IMG/VR virus record: IMGVR_UViG_2529293148_000011
Strand: one strand, 5' to 3'
Length of the DNA: 9,637 nt
DNA from: a virus
Taxonomy: Duplodnaviria; Heunggongvirae; Uroviricota; Caudoviricetes
Made by a program: the position numbers and the translations under genes. Each line of letters opens with the position of its first letter. The first letter of the stretch is position 1. The notes under the pieces were generated by a model that had not been told where the DNA came from, made no database searches, and saw only the letters and a list, made by a program, of their open reading frames with translations. Below are positions 1 to 9,637 of the stretch, piece after piece.

Positions 1-54
1 CCGTCGCCAGTTGTCGTTGGTATTCTGCAACTGGCGCGTTCCGGAGTGATAGCC

Positions 55-324
55 ATGAGCGAACAGTACCTGATAACGCTCGACGAGTGGAAACCAAAAC
101 GGTTCAGTCTCCCAATAACAAACACTACCCTGGTGAAATACGGAAAACTAGGATACATCGTTCCAAGACCACAAAAAATTCGTGGGCGTTGGCTGATAGA
201 TCGCCGGGCAGTATTTGTTGGACCTGGTGAAACGGGAATTGCGCCGGAAATTCATACTGGCGATGATGATGCACTGAAGGAGATTTTAACTCATGTCACC
301 GAGGCCACGAAAAAACAGCACTGA
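55..324 (+). CDS. xis: Excisionase (Xis-like, lambda/e14 type)
   Basis: ATG at 55 preceded by GGAG at 43-46. N-terminus MSEQYLITLDEW resembles lambda Xis MYLTLQEW. Small basic protein directly upstream of int, overlapping it by 32 nt as in lambda. The frame is open back to the window edge, so a longer upstream start (track uses GTG at 46) cannot be excluded. Confidence 0.75.
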   Translation: MSEQYLITLDEWKPKRFSLPITNTTLVKYGKLGYIVPRPQKIRGRWLIDRRAVFVGPGETGIAPEIHTGDDDALKEILTHVTEATKKQH

Positions 325-1411
325 CGTAACCGGTCTTTACGAAAAGTTTGATCGCAGAACTGGCAGGGTTTACTACCAGTATAAAAACCCTGTGACTGGA
401 AAATTTCACGGTCTCGGAACAGACAAAGGCAAAGCAGAAAAAATCGCTTCCACAGCCAATCAGCGAATAGCTGCAGCAGAAGCTGAATATTTCATGCGCA
501 AAATTGATGAAAGTCCGTCAGCAACAAAACGTCGGGGCATCAGATTAAAGGCATGGGTTGATCGATATCTGAAAATACAGGACGCGCGACTGAAAAATGG
601 AGATATTGCAGCTACAACTCACAAAGAAAAAACTCGAATGGCTGCATACCTGGTTTCCCGTCTGGGAAACCACCCATTGAAAGAACTGGAAGTAAGAGAC
701 TTTGCATTAATACTGGATGAGTGGCTGGATAAAGACATGGTCAGCACAGCGAGAGTAAATCGTGGATTATGGGTTGATATTTATAAAGAAGCACAGCATG
801 CAGGGGAAGTTCCTCCTGGATGGAATCCTCCGGAGGCTACCCGTAAACCGATCCCTAAAGTAACCAGAGCCAGGCTCACCATGGAAGACTGGCAAAAAAT
901 TTACAATGCAACGCCTGAAAAACACTTTATCCGTAACGCAATGCTTCTTGCGATTGTTACTGGTCAGCGCCGTGATGACATTTGCCACATGCGTTTTTCA
1001 GATGTGTGGAACGAACACTTGCATATCACCCAGGGAAAAACCGGAATGCGTCTGGCGTTACCGCTTACACTACGCTGTGATGCCATTGGGATAACGTTAA
1101 AAGAAGTTATTGATGGGTGCCGAGACAGAATATTAAGTCCATATCTAATCCATAGTCGGCACCAGAAACAACCGAAGCCGATGAGTAAAGACAACCTGAG
1201 CGACTACTTTGCCAAAGCACGGGATCTGGCTGGGATAATTCCACCAGCAGGAAAAACTCCGCCAACATTTCATGAACAACGCTCTCTATCAGAACGGCTG
1301 TACCGTGCACAGGGTATCGATACAAAAACATTACTAGGGCATAAAGTCCAGGCAACCACCGATCGCTATAACGATACTCGAGGTCAGGAATGGGTTAAGT
1401 TGGTTATTTGA
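293..1411 (+). CDS. int: Tyrosine site-specific integrase, lambda Int family
   Basis: 372 aa. C-terminus HEQRSLSERLYRAQGIDTKTLLGHKVQATTDRYNDTRGQEWVKLVI parallels the lambda Int catalytic region (H-x-x-R, LLGH, Y) as recalled. AAGGAG lies upstream of the ATG at 293. Resembles e14 IntE from memory. Confidence 0.95.
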   Translation: MSPRPRKNSTDVTGLYEKFDRRTGRVYYQYKNPVTGKFHGLGTDKGKAEKIASTANQRIAAAEAEYFMRKIDESPSATKRRGIRLKAWVDRYLKIQDARLKNGDIAATTHKEKTRMAAYLVSRLGNHPLKELEVRDFALILDEWLDKDMVSTARVNRGLWVDIYKEAQHAGEVPPGWNPPEATRKPIPKVTRARLTMEDWQKIYNATPEKHFIRNAMLLAIVTGQRRDDICHMRFSDVWNEHLHITQGKTGMRLALPLTLRCDAIGITLKEVIDGCRDRILSPYLIHSRHQKQPKPMSKDNLSDYFAKARDLAGIIPPAGKTPPTFHEQRSLSERLYRAQGIDTKTLLGHKVQATTDRYNDTRGQEWVKLVI

Positions 1412-2141: not shown

Positions 2142-2810
2142 ATGGTGAAATTAATGAAAAAAAACACAGATGATGGGGCTAAAATTTACACACCACTTAC
2201 CCTAAAGCTTTATGACTGGTGGGTTTTGGGAGTATCAAATCGGCTTGCATGGGGATGTCCTACAAAGGAATACCTTCTTCCACACTTTCTGGAACATTTA
2301 GGTAACAACCATCTGGATATTGGTGTTGGAACTGGGTTTTACCTTACTCACGTACCTGAGAGTAGTCTGATATCTTTAATGGATTTGAACGAAGCTAGCC
2401 TGAACGCGGCATCTACAAGGGCTGGGGAATCAAAAATTAAACATAAAATTAGCCATGATGTTTTTGAACCTTATCCCGCGGCGTTACATGGTCAATTTGA
2501 TTCCATTTCCATGTTTTACCTTCTTCACTGCCTGCCTGGAAATATATCTACAAAAAGCTGTGTAATACGCAATGCGGCGCAGGCCTTAACTGACGATGGA
2601 ACTCTATACGGAGCCACAATTCTTGGCGATGGAGTTGTGCACAATAGCTTCGGTCAAAAACTGATGCGCATTTACAATCAGAAAGGCATCTTTTCAAACA
2701 CAAAAGATTCCGAAGAAGGCTTAACGCATATACTCTCAGAGCATTTCGAGAATGTTAAAACCAAGGTTCAAGGTACTGTAGTAATGTTTTCCGCTTCAGG
2801 GAAAAAATAG
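2142..2810 (+). CDS. Class I SAM-dependent methyltransferase (small-molecule type), likely cargo/moron gene
   Basis: Motif I LDIGVGTG and a post-II-like FDSISMFYLLHCLP. No DPPY/NPPY or PCQ DNA-methyltransferase motifs. The ATG at 2154 has a better SD (GGTGA at 2144-2148) than the ATG at 2142. May correspond to e14 YmfD, but that is an unverified recollection. Confidence 0.8.
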   Translation: MVKLMKKNTDDGAKIYTPLTLKLYDWWVLGVSNRLAWGCPTKEYLLPHFLEHLGNNHLDIGVGTGFYLTHVPESSLISLMDLNEASLNAASTRAGESKIKHKISHDVFEPYPAALHGQFDSISMFYLLHCLPGNISTKSCVIRNAAQALTDDGTLYGATILGDGVVHNSFGQKLMRIYNQKGIFSNTKDSEEGLTHILSEHFENVKTKVQGTVVMFSASGKK

Positions 2811-2817
2811 CATCCAA

Positions 2818-2850
2818 CCGCAGCACGTTCTTGCTTAAGACGTGCTGCGG
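2818..2850 (-). terminator. Hairpin (10-bp stem CCGCAGCACG/CGTGCTGCGG, 13-nt loop) between the convergent methyltransferase gene and the pin/tfa remnant
   Basis: Lies 15 nt 3' of the - strand remnant stop. On the - strand a T-run follows after 10 nt (TTGGATGCTATTTTTT). Confidence 0.4.
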
Positions 2851-2864
2851 CATAATCCCAATGA

Positions 2865-3191
2865 TTACTCCATGACAGGGTTCGTAGGCCACTCAATATC
2901 AGGTGCAGTTGATGTATCAACACGATTCAGCAACACCCGATACTTTTTCCAGGCTTCCACCACCAGCACGACAAGATGCCGCATACAGTGACCCAGTCAG
3001 TCCAGTTTCCAGACAACCAGTGCGTCACCTTTTTGAAGGCGCTTTAAAGCACGTTTTAATCCAGGTCGGCCTGTCCTTGTTCCGCTTTATTTATCTTCAA
3101 ATATTTGTTCACATCCTGCACAAACAAGAGCGTTTCGTTGCAGGTCTGTATTCTGGTCATTTGTTGATACCCTTACATAACCAATCAGCAC
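2865..3191 (-). pseudogene. pin: Serine DNA invertase (Pin/Gin/Hin/Cin family) N-terminal remnant fused to a tfa 3' end; two in-frame stops
   Basis: From GTG at 3191..3189 (SD GGGAGA upstream) the - strand reads VLIGYVRVSTNDQNTDLQRNALVCAGCEQIFEDK[84 protein letters not shown]. The first ~77 codons match the invertase N-terminus including the catalytic-serine region. Stops are TAA at 3089..3087 and TGA at 2999..2997. The last ~31 codons are a Tfa C-terminus. Confidence 0.75.
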
Positions 3192-3245
3192 ACTGAATCT
3201 CCCGTCCAAAAGCGCAAATCATGCCATGCAGGCCGGATACGGCCA

Positions 3246-3271
3246 TTATCTAAAACCTCGGTTTACAGGAA
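3246..3271. other. Din-family invertase crossover site (gix/pix/hix-like): TTATCTAAAACC TC GGTTTACAGGAA
   Basis: Two 12-bp half-sites, TTATCnAAAACC and GGTTTACAGGAA (reverse complement TTCCTGTAAACC), around a 2-bp core; this fits gix as recalled. It sits 55 bp upstream of the pin start and abuts the orphan fibre segment. Confidence 0.6.
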
Positions 3272-3649
3272 ACGGTAAATCAGGCTTCTGGCGCATTACA
3301 GAAAAACCAGAACGGTGCAGATATTCCGGTAAAAGATACCTTCACCAAAAATATTGGTGCCTGCCGCGCATATAGAGCATGGCTGAATATTGGTGGCGAT
3401 AGTCAGATCTGGACAACCGCGCAATTTATTTCGTGGCTGGAGAGTCAGGGGGCATTTAACCATCCTTACTGGATGTGCAAAGGCTCATGGGCTTATGCAA
3501 ATAATAAGGTTATTACAGATACAGGTTGCGGAAATATTTGTCTTGCAGGTGCTGTGGTGGAAGTTATTGGCACTCGCGGCGCAATGACCATACGCGTTAC
3601 TACTCCGAGTACGTCCTGCGGCGTCTGTCGCCCATTTTTCCGAAAATAA
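3254..3649 (+). pseudogene. Orphan variable C-terminal segment of a tail fibre protein (Sv-type, Mu/P1/e14-like), no start codon
   Basis: A 132-codon open frame starts inside the crossover site: NLGLQETVNQASGALQKNQNGADIPVKDTFTKNIGACRAYRAWLNIGGDSQIWTTAQFISWLESQGAFNHPYWMCKGSWAYANNKVITDTGCGNICLAGAVVEVIGTRGAMTIRVTTPSTSCGV... This Gly/Trp/Cys-rich sequence is characteristic of invertible-segment fibre tips as recalled. A TAA at 3251-3253 inside the site closes the frame upstream. Confidence 0.5.
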
Positions 3650-3788
3650 ATGCTCCGACAATACGTGCCACATAACCTGCACCGTAGGTTCCCATTGCCA
3701 GAATTAACGCCATTGCCGTTGATGATTCAGGAAAAAATATTTCATGAAACACTAACGCTGCGCCGAGCGAATATAACTGGAAACCCAT
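3600..3788 (-). pseudogene. N-terminal fragment (TM1-TM2) of an MFS metabolite:H+ symporter-type transporter
   Basis: 62-aa ORF MGFQLYSLGAALVFHEIFFPESSTAMALILAMGTYGAGYVARIVGAFIFGKMGDRRRR... resembles the N-terminus of ShiA/ProP-type MFS proteins (ALVFNREFFP...FGHFGDRLGRKR in ShiA as recalled). An in-frame TGA lies immediately upstream of the Met, and the ORF ends inside the fibre-tip segment, so only about 60 codons of a roughly 430-codon gene remain. Confidence 0.45.
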
Positions 3789-4008
3789 GATTCATAGATA
3801 TTTTTTACCATCCTGTGGATTTCTGGGCGTTTTCTAAGTTTTTTTAAGATGGTTGTATTTTTTCTAAAAACTCCTGAACTCGATTTTGCTGTTTGTCTGA
3901 GGCCTTTTTATGTCCCATATATGCCCCAAGGTGCCCCATGTAAATCCAATTCAACTCAAAGCGTCCATGTTCAATATTTTTACAAGGGGCTGGCATATCA
4001 ATGTTTTT

Positions 4009-4584
4009 TTATTGCGTAACGTCAAACGCTCGGATTGAGCGTAAATCATCAAGATTATTCAGTTCTTCCTTCATCTCCCGCTGACGCTGATAAATCTCGT
4101 TATTGCGATCGACCTGTGCCTGCGCCATTGCTGTCGCCAGTTCTTCCAGTTCCGGCATTGACAGTTTCACCTGTTGATTATCGGCATCACCCCATGCAAG
4201 GGCGGTTAGTGCCGTATCAGATTTCGCCGCCATTACTACCGGATAAAGACGGGCCATTGAGTCGGGGCCAGCGTTCCAGGTGCGACCGTTCCATTCAAAG
4301 GTGAACGGCAGTGCTTCCTGTTCTGTGCGCCATGCCTCGATTTCCTGCTTTTTGGCATCCTTCGCCGCGGCGATAAGTTCCGGCGTGACAGTGAAAGGGG
4401 CGATTTCGCCCCATTTGCCGTTCTGCAACTCTTCCCAGATGCGCTGGCCTGTCGGTGCGGTATCATCCTGCATGGCGGTATACGGGACGAATTCCGTTTC
4501 ACCTTCAAATAACACCTCGCAGTCAACCGCACCATTTTCAAGATAATGGGCGTTTCTGATGCCCTTTACCGCTCTGATTTTCAT
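4009..4584 (-). CDS. tfa: Tail fibre assembly protein / chaperone
   Basis: 191-aa ORF starting 13 nt after the stf stop, with SD GGGGAA. Size and position immediately 3' of the side tail fibre gene match Tfa-type chaperones. The C-terminus lacks the [16 protein letters not shown] motif, so it is a different Tfa subfamily from the two remnants. Confidence 0.7.
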   Translation of the reverse strand: MKIRAVKGIRNAHYLENGAVDCEVLFEGETEFVPYTAMQDDTAPTGQRIWEELQNGKWGEIAPFTVTPELIAAAKDAKKQEIEAWRTEQEALPFTFEWNGRTWNAGPDSMARLYPVVMAAKSDTALTALAWGDADNQQVKLSMPELEELATAMAQAQVDRNNEIYQRQREMKEELNNLDDLRSIRAFDVTQ

Positions 4585-4597
4585 GTTTTATTCCCCG

Positions 4598-6721
4598 TTA
4601 CTCGATGCGCACAAACAGGCAGATACGACCGGTTATTCCTTTAGAGTCCCTGACCCCGGATAGCGCCATATAACGCCCCGGGAAAGTGTACCCTGTAGCT
4701 CCTGCACTCGGTGCGGAATTGTAGGAGCCAACCCCAGGAGAAGATATTAAGCACGAAAGATTAACTCCGCCCAGTTGTGACCCCTGCACCACATCACCCA
4801 GGCCAATATTGATTTCTTTATCCCCGAAAGTTGTTCCGCGATAAACAGCCAGCACTGGAACACCCACTGCCGGGTATTTGAAATATGAGCCTGAGCCCGC
4901 CGTCCTGGACAGCAGGAAGGCCAGCGAATCGCCGTCGTAAATAATGGGGCTTACTGTTGCATTCCAGTTGTTTCCACTAAAGCGGTAAGTCAGGAAATGA
5001 ATACTATGCTCACCTTCGTAATACTGGTTAAAACACAGCAGTGTTTTGAATTTGCGTATTGTGTCCGACTCATCGTTATCAAAGGGCGACCACATCACAT
5101 CAATGATGCCGTTAAATTTCTTGGTGCCTACCAGCAGCATGGAAGAATCCGCAAGACTGACCGCATAACGCCCCGGCGTGGCCACTTTCAGCCATTCAAC
5201 AAAATCGGCCTGCCCGTTAAATGTCAGGGCTTCGGTGCTGGCAAATGCCTGACCGAACCCATGCATACCGGACAGTGCCAGCCTGCCCGGTGCGCGGTCG
5301 CGGATATAGCTCTGGGGTTCCATCGTAGCAGCAGCTTTCAGTCCAAGCTCCGTGCGCATGTCTCCAGGCGTGTTTCGTGACAGTAATAAGCGAGCCTTGT
5401 TGCTGCATGGAATTGCTTTTGCCTCAAAGTTATCACCAAAATAAAGGAGAGAGTTTTGTCCCACCCCTACCTTGCTGATATTGGTTAACGTATTGTTAAG
5501 CGGCTGTTTACCTGCCAGTGCTTTAGTAACCGTTGTCGCAAAGTTCGGGTCATTGCCCAGCGCTGCTGCCAGCTCGTTCAGCGTGTCCAGGGCTTCCGGT
5601 GACGAGTCAACCAGCGCAGCAAGCAGTTTGCGAACAAATGCCGCGTTCGCTGTTTCCAGACCGGCAGCATCGTCCGGTGGGGTTGGTGTGGTGGGTGTGC
5701 CGGTGAATGCCGGGCTGTCCAGCGGCGCTTTTGTTTTCGTCTCGTCCATGACGGTTTTGACGGCTTTTGGTGTGGCTGCCAGTTCCTCGCTGTCGTTGTC
5801 TGTATCACTACAGAGTTGCACCAGGCCTTTTTCTGTTGTGGAAGCATTGCTTCCCTTCAGGTCATCAACAATCCGTTGCGCCTCGTCCCTGTGCTGTTTC
5901 GCTTCCTGCGCATTGCCTGCGCTCGCATCCTGGCTGGCCTTCGCCTGCCGGGCGTATTCGGCAGCGTTATTTTCATGGCCCAGCGCAACATTTGCCGCAT
6001 TTTCTGCACTGGTCGCAGCCAAAGATGCTGCTTCCTTATACTGACTGGCGCGTCCGGCTGCATCAACCGATTCATTCCGCGCTGCCCCTGATGCCTGAGC
6101 ACTGTTTTCTGCCTCATTCGCAAAACGCTCTGCGTCATCACGGGCCGTTTCGGTTGCTGTCACATCCTGTGCAGTCTGTTGTGCGCTTCCGGCTGCATTA
6201 TCAGCGTGACTTTTTGCGTTCTGCTCGCTTTTTGCAGCCGCTTCGGCGCTCTGCTGTGCCTGATTTTTCAGCTCTTCTGCCTTATTTTTACTGTCAAGAG
6301 CAGAGGTCGCTGCGTTTGTTGCTGTATCCGCTGCCGACTCTGCTCTTTTACGGTCATCAGTGACCTGCTCTGACTGCCGGGTAACTGCATCCACCATTTC
6401 CTCAAAACGCTTCATCACCTCCGGACGTAAATCACCATCCTTTGGTGCATCCAGAAACGCGTTCAGTGTCCCAGGTGTGTCAGTCGGTGCCACATAAATA
6501 TCCCCGACACGGGTTGGCTGCCAGCCGTTACGGTTAAGCGCAACCTCGTAATACCCCGGCTCAGCCTCAATCACATAAGCACCGTTATTGTCCGTCACAC
6601 AAGTGGCGACAACGTGTGCCACAACGGTCGGACTGGTTCTTCTGGCCCGCAGTTCAATCGCACAATTTACGACAGGCTTACCCGCCCCGTCTTTCAGCAC
6701 ACCTGAAATCTTTACTGCCAT
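4598..6721 (-). CDS. stf: Side tail fibre protein (lambda Stf-like)
   Basis: N-terminus MAVKISGVLKDGAGKPV matches lambda Stf. A long Ala/Ser/Gln/Glu-rich shaft is followed by LAATPKAVKTVMDETKTKAPLDSPAFTGTP...LNELAAALGNDPNFATTVTKALAGKQP, a conserved Stf region. The likely start is ATG 6721..6719 (GGGG SD); the track's GTG at 6727 is two codons upstream. Confidence 0.9.
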   Translation of the reverse strand: MAVKISGVLKDGAGKPVVNCAIELRARRTSPTVVAHVVATCVTDNNGAYVIEAEPGYYEVALNRNGWQPTRVGDIYVAPTDTPGTLNAFLDAPKDGDLRPEVMKRFEEMVDAVTRQSEQVTDDRKRAESAADTATNAATSALDSKNKAEELKNQAQQSAEAAAKSEQNAKSHADNAAGSAQQTAQDVTATETARDDAERFANEAENSAQASGAARNESVDAAGRASQYKEAASLAATSAENAANVALGHENNAAEYARQAKASQDASAGNAQEAKQHRDEAQRIVDDLKGSNASTTEKGLVQLCSDTDNDSEELAATPKAVKTVMDETKTKAPLDSPAFTGTPTTPTPPDDAAGLETANAAFVRKLLAALVDSSPEALDTLNELAAALGNDPNFATTVTKALAGKQPLNNTLTNISKVGVGQNSLLYFGDNFEAKAIPCSNKARLLLSRNTPGDMRTELGLKAAATMEPQSYIRDRAPGRLALSGMHGFGQAFASTEALTFNGQADFVEWLKVATPGRYAVSLADSSMLLVGTKKFNGIIDVMWSPFDNDESDTIRKFKTLLCFNQYYEGEHSIHFLTYRFSGNNWNATVSPIIYDGDSLAFLLSRTAGSGSYFKYPAVGVPVLAVYRGTTFGDKEINIGLGDVVQGSQLGGVNLSCLISSPGVGSYNSAPSAGATGYTFPGRYMALSGVRDSKGITGRICLFVRIE

Positions 6722-6732
6722 ATTCACCCCAC

Positions 6733-6785: not shown

Positions 6786-7397
6786 TCAGAACTTATAACC
6801 GACACCCACGATGAAACCGTCAGTGCGCCAGTCACCACTGCCGGAGCCTTCATAAGCAAGGTCAATAGTCACCGTTTCTGCCGGGCTGAACTGAAGACCC
6901 GCACCCCATGCCAGCGACAGGTGTCGTGCGGTATAGCCATCACTGGCGGTGGTCGTCTCCTTCACATACCCCGGTTTCAATTCATCACGTCGGTAATCCT
7001 GAACACTGTCAGACCAGCGGGTGTAAGCCATCCCAGCCGTGCCATAGAGACTGACCTGCTCACTGACCTGCCAGACAGGGCCGGCCATCAGACTCACATA
7101 ACGACCGCGCAGGCTTTCATAATGGAGCGTATTTTCACCCGTCTTCATCGTGTCGCTTTTTTTCGCCGACGCATAACTCAGCGAAACAATACCACCCGCA
7201 TGGTCCGTGAATTCATAACGGTATTTCACGTTAATCCCTTTTAAATCACCTGTACGGGCACCGGTACCGGACAATGCCGGCACGCCGCCCGGGTGAACCT
7301 GAGCATATCCCACGGAAAACGCACCGTGTCCGACTTCAGCCTGCGCAGGAAGGGCCATTCCTGCCAGAAAAGCGACAAAAAATAAAATATGGCGCAT
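6786..7397 (-). CDS. lom: Lom-like outer membrane protein (Ail/Lom/PagC family)
   Basis: 203 aa with a signal peptide (MRHILFFVAFLAGMALPAQA). The body and C-terminus (LAYEGSGSGDWRTDGFIVGVGYKF) closely match lambda Lom as recalled. SD GAGAGG precedes the ATG. Confidence 0.9.
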   Translation of the reverse strand: MRHILFFVAFLAGMALPAQAEVGHGAFSVGYAQVHPGGVPALSGTGARTGDLKGINVKYRYEFTDHAGGIVSLSYASAKKSDTMKTGENTLHYESLRGRYVSLMAGPVWQVSEQVSLYGTAGMAYTRWSDSVQDYRRDELKPGYVKETTTASDGYTARHLSLAWGAGLQFSPAETVTIDLAYEGSGSGDWRTDGFIVGVGYKF

Positions 7398-7464: not shown

Positions 7465-9637
7465 TCAGCTGATACTGATTCCTGCCGTGGATTTTTTCAT
7501 GACCACCACCAGTAAATCGCTGATGTACGTTGTCGGCGTCCATTTGTTCGCGCCGGTCGACGACACATTAAACGTCAGGGTGACATGACCCCGTCCTGCC
7601 GGCATATCTATCACCGATGAGAACACCCGGCTGACATCCGTTGCCGGTTCATGGAAAATCTCAGCCCCGTTTTTAAACACCTGCAGCTTGCAGGTGGAAT
7701 ACCAGTATGACTGTTGGTTATGACTGTTGAAATTCTGGTGTTTCGTACCACGAAATAATACCGGCGGAATGATAATCTGCCGGTCGAATCCCTGATCATC
7801 ATAAACCGTGACGGTTATAGTGCCACTGGCATAACTTCCATTTCGCGGGAAAGCCTTACCCACCGTTTTGACAATATCGCCTTCAATCTGGCTGGCTGAC
7901 AGTTTTCCAAGGATCCGGCAGTTCTGATTAATCGTGACGTTGTTGAGCGTCCCGGAATTCGCATTCACGTTACCGCTGATATCAGCATTTCTCGCCGTCA
8001 GCCGCCCGTCCGGTGTCATGGAGAATGCCGGAGGATTACCGGATGACGTGATGCTCACCGCAAATAGTCGCTTCAGGAACACGTCGTTCATGAACAGCTG
8101 ATTCCCCTGCGCCACAAACAGCGGCGTGGTGTTACCGTTCTCCGGGGTAATCATCGCAATGCGATCGGCCTGCAGCAGAATGTTACTCAGGGTCTGACCA
8201 TCAACATCCTCAATCCCTGCACCAATACCGGCCACATAGGGAATACCGTTTTTTGTTTTCTGCACCTTCAGCATATACATGGCATTCAGCTCATTGCGCG
8301 TGTCTGACTGAACCCGCTGGATTTGCTGTATGGTCACGGCCTGGTCACCCAGCTTTTTATCCGTGGTCGAGGTAATTTCACTCCCTTTTTTATCCACGTA
8401 CTGGCGGACCTGTGCTATCTGTCGGGCGTTTTCTGACTGCCCCTGGCTGACAGTCTGTGAGATTTCACTGCTCACCCGGTCCACTTTCTGGTTCACCTGC
8501 GCGATGGCCAGTGCCTGGTCCTCATTCTTTTTCGCAACCAGCTGCGTGAGAGTGTTTTCCGCCTTCCCGATTTTCCGGGTCACTTCTGCGATATCCGTGT
8601 CCATCCGCTGACGGATGTCTTCTTCCAGTTGCGTGACCTCCGTACGCAGCGCTGAAGCATCAATGCGCTCTTTCAGTGCCTGACCAAGAAGCGTCTCATC
8701 TATCAGCCCCCGGAAAATTTCCAGATACCCTTCACCATCATTGCTGGGCTGCCCGCTGGCTTCCACAAAAGCAGATTTTCCCACCAGGTTGACGCTTCGC
8801 ACGTAAAACCAGAAATCCGTCCCCGGCTTAATCCGGCTCCCCTGGACAGTCCACTGACTGCCGGCCCCCAGATAACGGGCAGATTTTTCCACCTGTGCTG
8901 TGTTCGTGATGCGTTTTTCTGAGAACCAGAATTCAAACTGTACCGTCGGGTCATACACCGCAAGACGCGGGACCGCCGTTATCTGAAAATACCCCGGCGT
9001 CAGCTCAATGGTGGCGGGTTTTGCAGGTGCGTTAATCCGGAAGGTGGTGGTGGCAGGATCGCCCTGCTGTCCCCACGCATTTACCGCCCGGACTGTCAGC
9101 CTGTAGTTCCCCAGCGCCAGTTGTGTGAAGCGGTAAGTGGTTTCCGTCGTCCGGGCCGTGCTGACCAGCCGCTCACTGCCGTCATCCGCTGTTACAGTCA
9201 GGCGAAGCAGGAAGCTCACGCCCTTCACCACCTTCGGCGTGTCCCAGCGGGCCAGTACCTGATACTCCCCGCTGTCTGCAGTGACTTCGGCAGTCAGGTG
9301 CTGCACCGCTGGCGGCGTGACACCATTCACCGTGCCGCTCTGGTCGCCGTCAAAGTGCGCCCCGTTATCCACGATGGCTTCTTTTTCCGGTACATGCTGC
9401 ACGGCAGTGATGGCATGCGTGCCGTCATCGTTCTCACGAATACTCACACAGCGGAACAGGCGCTGGCGCAACGTCGGCAGCTTCAGCCCCCATACGCTGT
9501 ATTCAGCAACACCGTCAGGAACACGGCTCACTTTTACCTTCACGCCGTCGGTGACGGACTGAACCTCCACGCTGACCGGATTGCCACTTCCGTCAACCAG
9601 GCTTATCAGCGTGGTACCGGAGGATGGCAGCGTGATT
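7465..9637 (-). CDS. J: Host specificity / central tail fibre protein J (C-terminal ~720 codons; 5' end lies beyond the window)
   Basis: The frame is open from the window edge (9637) to the stop at 7465. A long beta-rich protein immediately upstream of lom-stf-tfa, as in lambda. The C-terminus ...[14 protein letters not shown] is in the receptor-binding region. Confidence 0.9.

Follow-up and report, generated by a model that had tools for sequence, protein, structure and literature searches.

The window, a stretch of 9,637 nucleotides from a Caudoviricetes record in IMG/VR (IMGVR_UViG_2529293148_000011), carries on its minus strand a frame that resembles a DNA invertase gene and is interrupted by two nonsense codons. 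This raises the question of whether the interruptions are errors in the sequence of a working gene, point mutations that silenced an otherwise complete gene, or decay in a gene that had already been lost. We conclude with high confidence that the locus is a non-functional relic of a prophage tail-fibre host-range switch of the Mu G-segment or e14 P-segment type. In the ancestral switch, an invertible segment offering alternative tail-fibre ends lay between two gix sites in inverted orientation, with a serine-recombinase invertase gene next to it. Four parts survive in the window: the first third of one variable segment, one gix site, the ribosome-binding site and the first 79 invertase codons. 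The features of the window are listed in Table 1.

Table 1. Positions of the relic and of neighbouring features in the window.
Feature	Position	Strand	Evidence or remark
Excisionase-like ORF	46-324	+	Pfam Exc, E = 8e-5; score equal to the curated cut-off (23 bits)
Lambda-type integrase	293-1411	+	Pfam; start overlapped by the excisionase-like ORF
Methyltransferase gene	2142-2810		Between the tfa scraps and the relic
tfa 3' end	2865..2962	-	Last ~30 codons and stop TAA (2867..2865), in-frame fusion; Pfam, junction alignment
Invertase stump, codons 1-79 from GTG 3191	2955..3191	-	Codons 1-64 gin-like, 65-79 pin-like; Pfam, nucleotide identity
Nonsense codon 65, TGA	2997..2999	-	Arg in intact genes; common to all remnant alleles
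Nonsense codon 35, TAA	3087..3089	-	TTA (Leu) in all other alleles; lineage-specific
Shine-Dalgarno-like motif GGGAGA	3198..3203	-	Direct sequence reading
Single gix-type crossover site, TTCCTGTAAACCGAGGTTTTAGATAA	3246..3271	-	Consensus match
S'-like variable tail-fibre segment, 5' third	3254..3623	+	Reads away from gix; truncated at 3623
ydfJ fragment (MHS-family MFS transporter, chromosomal)	3624..3794	-	97% identity to the gene as annotated in thousands of E. coli genomes
DUF4376 assembly-like gene	4009-4584	-	
Tail fibre gene	4598-6727	-	
Ail/Lom gene	6786-7397	-	
J, 3' part	7465-9570	-	

We first consider the reading frame itself. Translated with the codon table from the GTG at 3191, the minus strand has TAA as codon 35 (3089..3087) and TGA as codon 65 (2999..2997), and a GGGAGA Shine-Dalgarno-like motif at 3203..3198 precedes the GTG by six bases, all in agreement with a preliminary description of this DNA. 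The translation contains the nucleophilic-serine motif YVRVS, here VRVST with Ser9. The arginine that had been expected at codon 65 of an intact gene is indeed found there, within RLGRSM (CGG in pinE). Beside the stop stand two further replacements, R68H and S69C, which turn RLGRSM into *LGHCM (asterisk, stop), and the conserved-arginine motif DRLGRS of Gin and Pin thus reads D*LGHC in the stump. We take the arginines of DRLGR to be catalytic, by comparison with R68 and R71 of the Tn3/gamma-delta resolvase. An uninterrupted invertase frame of ~184-195 codons was not found, given the stops at codons 35 and 65 and the end of homology at codon 79. The predicted product is 34 residues long, and we infer that recombinase activity is impossible, even if the chimera described below were read through.

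The residues around the stops had been described as invertase-like throughout; this holds up to about codon 79, but the frame then continues into the C-terminus of a tail-fibre assembly protein. On the read-through frame, Pfam Resolvase matched residues 3-84 (profile positions 2-92 of 145, E = 3.8e-21), so that the second half of the catalytic domain is missing, and Caudo_TAP matched residues 79-105 (profile positions 104-130 of 131, E = 4.1e-12). No C-terminal helix-turn-helix DNA-binding domain was detected in the Pfam scan of this frame. About 105-115 invertase codons are gone, among them those for the DNA-binding domain and for the remainder of the catalytic domain; neither the C-terminal half of the latter nor the dimerisation helix would be encoded. 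The missing ~320-350 nt of invertase coding sequence were not found downstream of 2955 in the window by six-frame inspection and Pfam, and their place is taken by the tfa 3' end and, on the opposite strand, by the methyltransferase gene.

A base-by-base comparison with pinE, Mu gin and the tfa gene of E. coli strain 789 placed the join between invertase and tfa at ~2955-2965, in the short shared stretch CTGGTGGTGGAAGCC; pin-type sequence runs up to ...GTGCTGGTGG, and the lambdoid tfa 3' end follows from ...TGGAAGCCTGGAAAAAG onward. In strain 789, stf, tfa (intact) and a methyltransferase gene have the order that the window shows downstream of the junction; the last of these, of the class I SAM-dependent type, follows tfa on the opposite strand, in a position that matches 2142-2810. 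The simplest explanation for the fusion being in frame is chance, at odds of one in three. Because only ~79 of 184-195 codons are left and these are fused to tfa, the stump would be dead even without either stop.

The stump is also a hybrid. Its codons 1-64 share 96.9% nucleotide identity with Mu gin over 3191..3001 and are nearly identical to an intact E. coli gin-type gene (L006), but only 138 of 192 nt (~72%) are shared with pin. Codons 65-79 agree with intact pin alleles in 39 of 45 nt, with codons 70-77 equal to pinE at every base, and the changeover from gin to pin falls within the conserved block CTGGTTGTCTGGAAACTGGA. Because the 5' part is gin-like, the leucine in EDKLSG that had been attributed to Pin describes Gin; residue 35 of Pin is isoleucine, and PinE reads EDKISG. 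The preliminary description regarded the locus as a complete pin gene killed purely by two point mutations rather than by a frame error. Both stops are indeed gapless single-codon changes in well-conserved invertase sequence when aligned to intact genes, and to this extent the description stands, but the gene is truncated and chimeric rather than otherwise intact. With invertase sequence confined to codons 1-79 and a 5' part that is 97% gin against ~72% pin, we consider inactivation by point mutations alone very unlikely.

Comparison with intact systems shows how much has been lost. Gin, the G-segment invertase of Mu (NC_000929, 35092-35673), has the same GTG start as the stump, and Mu and two E. 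coli P2/Mu-like prophages (L006 and L007) have the same upstream layout, in which the S' segment is followed by gix and the invertase gene. Mu gin has 193 codons and the L006 and L007 genes 195, whereas the window keeps 79, with stops at 35 and 65 as well as R68H and S69C. Unlike these gin systems, the window has neither the DNA-binding domain nor a partner gix. Pin, represented by pinE of the K-12 element e14 and by pin alleles in IMG/VR, has 184 residues and occurs in lambdoid and defective E. coli prophages, and the IMG/VR pin alleles read GAC CGA where the window has GAC TGA. We found 74 pin-type loci in IMG/VR with GAC CGA CTG GG at codons 64-67, and the 184-codon frame was uninterrupted in 53 of them. 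The other 21 of these 74 loci (L030-L103) mostly stop early, for example after 26, 104, 112 or 142 codons, and some of the short frames may end at contig edges. Invertase decay looks common in E. coli prophages.

The same relic is found in RefSeq strains of E. coli, where a 64-residue "recombinase family protein" (WP_071598134.1, WP_001378636.1) is followed by "tail fiber assembly protein, partial". These loci share with the window the junction, TGA-65 and the downstream position of a class I SAM-dependent methyltransferase gene, at 97.5-98.3% nucleotide identity over ~1.4-1.8 kb. They differ in that their codon 35 is TTA (Leu) where the window has TAA, and several of them keep a complete invertible segment with both gix sites, while the segment in the window is truncated. 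This kind of object is therefore already known, annotated in those strains as a small recombinase and a partial tfa pseudogene.

We then examined the distribution of each stop. A 61-mer centred on TGA-65 was matched exactly in 149 complete E. coli genome records (166 genomes matched at all) and in 18 IMG/VR contigs, indicating that TGA-65 is old and inherited. In all 23 other remnant copies long enough to include this region, TGA-65 is accompanied by the tfa junction; these copies comprise three E. coli chromosomes retrieved by similarity alone (L001, L004 and L005), a 2.5-kb MAG contig (L011) and 19 IMG/VR contigs, and every allele examined has both the truncation and TGA-65. A broader search with a 408-nt query spanning gix, stump and tfa gave 531 genomes that covered at least 80% of it, a figure that joins separate pieces, may include an intact invertase near a tfa end and is not a prevalence; the 61-mer search is more specific. 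The MAG contig (JAEWTL010000008.1, 2.5 kb) is labelled "MAG: Bacillota bacterium". At ~97% identity it has an E. coli-type stump that includes TGA-65 and the tfa junction, and most likely the contig derives from Escherichia and reached a Bacillota MAG through a binning error.

The distribution of TAA-35 is far narrower. Codon 35 is TTA in Mu gin, L006, L007 and every other remnant allele, and TAA-35 is accordingly a single T-to-A change; the proposed alignment to intact genes gave the predicted one-base difference, TTA to TAA, against every other allele examined. A 61-mer centred on the TAA codon was not matched exactly in any of 5,426 complete E. coli genomes, where the best match (60/61) was the TTA allele, and an exact search of a one-genome-per-species collection with a 41-mer also gave no match. 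The 41-mer was found in two other assemblies only, the IMG/VR contigs L002 and L003. Over 8,063 bases, L002 and the window are 99.99% identical. Between L003 and the window there are 18 differences among 6,493 bases, so that L003 represents a separate strain.

These distributions bear directly on the suggestion that errors of sequencing or assembly put the stops into a gene that is otherwise functional; the preliminary description had left sequencing errors as an alternative. The rarity of TAA-35, absent as an exact match from both genome collections, is what such an error would look like, but the codon recurs in two other assemblies, one of them from a separate strain. For TGA-65 the exact match in 149 complete records, together with the 18 IMG/VR contigs, refutes an error. 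Even with both stops corrected, the frame would still leave invertase sequence at codon 79. We therefore regard the error explanation as extremely unlikely. From these comparisons, TAA-35 is a later, lineage-specific change, and neither stop is a sequencing error.

The step that produced TGA-65 can be traced less directly. Mu gin and L006 have CGC as codon 65 and pinE has CGG, and a single C-to-T step is plausible because the 74 IMG/VR pin-type loci have CGA. A pattern search in which codon 65 was left free in the HC context (GGT CAC TGT) retrieved TGA alleles only and no CGA intermediate. The change from CGA to TGA that had been proposed is thus plausible from pin alleles, but with no CGA in the exact HC context it is deduced from alleles that differ at three nearby bases.

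A further explanation is that TGA is recoded as selenocysteine or read through to give a functional product. Apart from the in-frame position of the stop, nothing points to this, and TAA-35 lies upstream of TGA-65, the downstream frame is a chimera without a DNA-binding domain, and other lineages carry independent extra stops. Recoding has practically no chance of being correct, and we dismissed it on anatomy alone.

The additional stops in other lineages are W61* in L004 and L029 and W81* in L004. Among nine distinct remnant alleles we counted 8 synonymous, 8 replacement and 2 nonsense variants, compared with 38 synonymous, 12 replacement and no nonsense variants in the same 237 nt of intact pin alleles (Fisher p = 0.02; counts from a substitutions-only alignment). 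The gin-type TKTD motif is present in the remnants L021, L025 and L028, and gene conversion from intact gin genes has probably raised the synonymous count of the remnants. The substitution pattern indicates that the stump is under relaxed constraint.

The switch around the stump is as incomplete as the gene. The gix site at 3246-3271, TTCCTGTAAACCGAGGTTTTAGATAA, has one mismatch to the gix consensus, with 0 chance matches expected. Its G-to-A variant is normal rather than a sign of decay, because the same variant also stands beside intact invertase genes (L006). No second gix was found in the window at up to three mismatches to either site variant, nor was a matching inverted repeat for 3246-3271; in relatives with a full segment, the partner gix lies 3.0-3.3 kb away. 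The translation of 3254-3623, ~123 residues, matches residues ~9-131 of Mu S' almost exactly and then diverges. Similarity of the window to L001 and L006 stops at 3621-3623, and the segment is cut at 3623/3624 by the ydfJ fragment. Neither the pair of inverted crossover sites nor the alternative C-terminal segments with their assembly genes that belong to such a switch were found in the window, and since only one gix site is present, no local inversion should be possible. The ydfJ fragment comprises ~57 codons between the S' scrap and the tail-fibre end of the neighbouring prophage, and it is probably the trace of an old junction at the ydfJ locus, left by prophage attachment or by a deletion.

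Gin, Pin, Cin and Hin cross-complement. A stump without an invertase could have been kept for use in cis, with gix and a Fis-dependent enhancer letting the invertase of a co-resident prophage flip the segment in trans, in which case the stops would not matter. The 5' 191 nt of the stump are ~97% identical to Mu gin, and the enhancer of Hin and Gin lies within the invertase gene, ~100 bp from the crossover site, according to a passage in PMC3798978 that cites Kahmann et al. 1985. Given this identity and this spacing, the stump should still carry the enhancer. Two relatives, L019 and L027, share the dead allele and have collinear flanks, and each keeps the whole 3.1-kb segment, which in one is inverted relative to the other. 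The segments lie at ~9838-12951 in L019 and ~3595-6708 in L027, with the stump oriented to the plus strand in both.

However, the segments of L019 and L027 are 95.4% identical, with the differences evenly spread along the whole length, while their flanks are 99.1-99.6% identical. With 4.6% divergence in the segment against less than 1% in the flanks, recombinational replacement of the segment explains the orientations equally well. In addition, the substitutions in the stump look unconstrained, and the window has no second gix and a segment cut at 3623. We consider it quite improbable that the stump was retained for use in cis. As a lead for relatives, the idea that gix and an enhancer-bearing stump form the retained cis half of an orphan switch, flipped in trans by co-resident invertases, is unlikely but conceivable. 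If it were true, a tail-fibre cassette would go on flipping long after the death of its resident invertase in strains with a complete segment, and the opposite orientations of L019 and L027 would be a trace of such a switch. Because the partner gix is absent from the window, this lead does not apply there; the lone gix of the window could at most recombine with distant gix sites.

A dead host-range switch remains the reading that we prefer, and none of the observations contradicts it. A gin/pin hybrid stump is joined, at a few shared bases, to the lambdoid tfa end that precedes the methyltransferase gene, and the comparisons show that the ancestral stump already carried TGA-65, R68H and S69C. 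TTA later changed to TAA at codon 35 in this lineage, and W61* and W81* arose elsewhere. Both stops would then represent neutral decay in a gene that would be dead without them. Decay of this ordinary kind is found in prophages of many E. coli genomes, and the relic offers an example of stepwise decay in which a shared ancient lesion (the truncation and TGA-65) was followed by lineage-specific nonsense mutations. TAA-35 can be used as a lineage marker. The locus is properly annotated as a chimeric invertase/tfa pseudogene, neither a gene with two errors nor a small recombinase ORF, and the tail-fibre switch of the remnant is unable to operate on its own.

Finally, we surveyed the rest of the window. 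A tRNA scan of the whole window found no gene, a promoter and terminator scan of 2800-3400 found none, and the small ORFs at 3600-4019 and 1719-1996 had no Pfam match. Because the excisionase-like ORF and the integrase read toward the relic, an attachment site should lie just after 1411. We infer that the relic is what is left of an older prophage, hemmed in by two others on an Escherichia chromosome. Two copies of the tfa 3' end, at 1838-1913 and 2887-2962, are ~90% identical and flank the methyltransferase gene, and related loci have the same tfa scraps together with a DUF4376 scrap. The paired scraps suggest repeated recombination at the conserved tfa terminus. A 45-codon ORF on the minus strand (2755-2892) overlaps both the 3' end of the methyltransferase gene, which is on the opposite strand, and the tfa scrap. 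An ORF of the same size at the matching position in related strains is the RefSeq hypothetical protein WP_001309429.1, and the 45-codon ORF looks like an annotation artefact.
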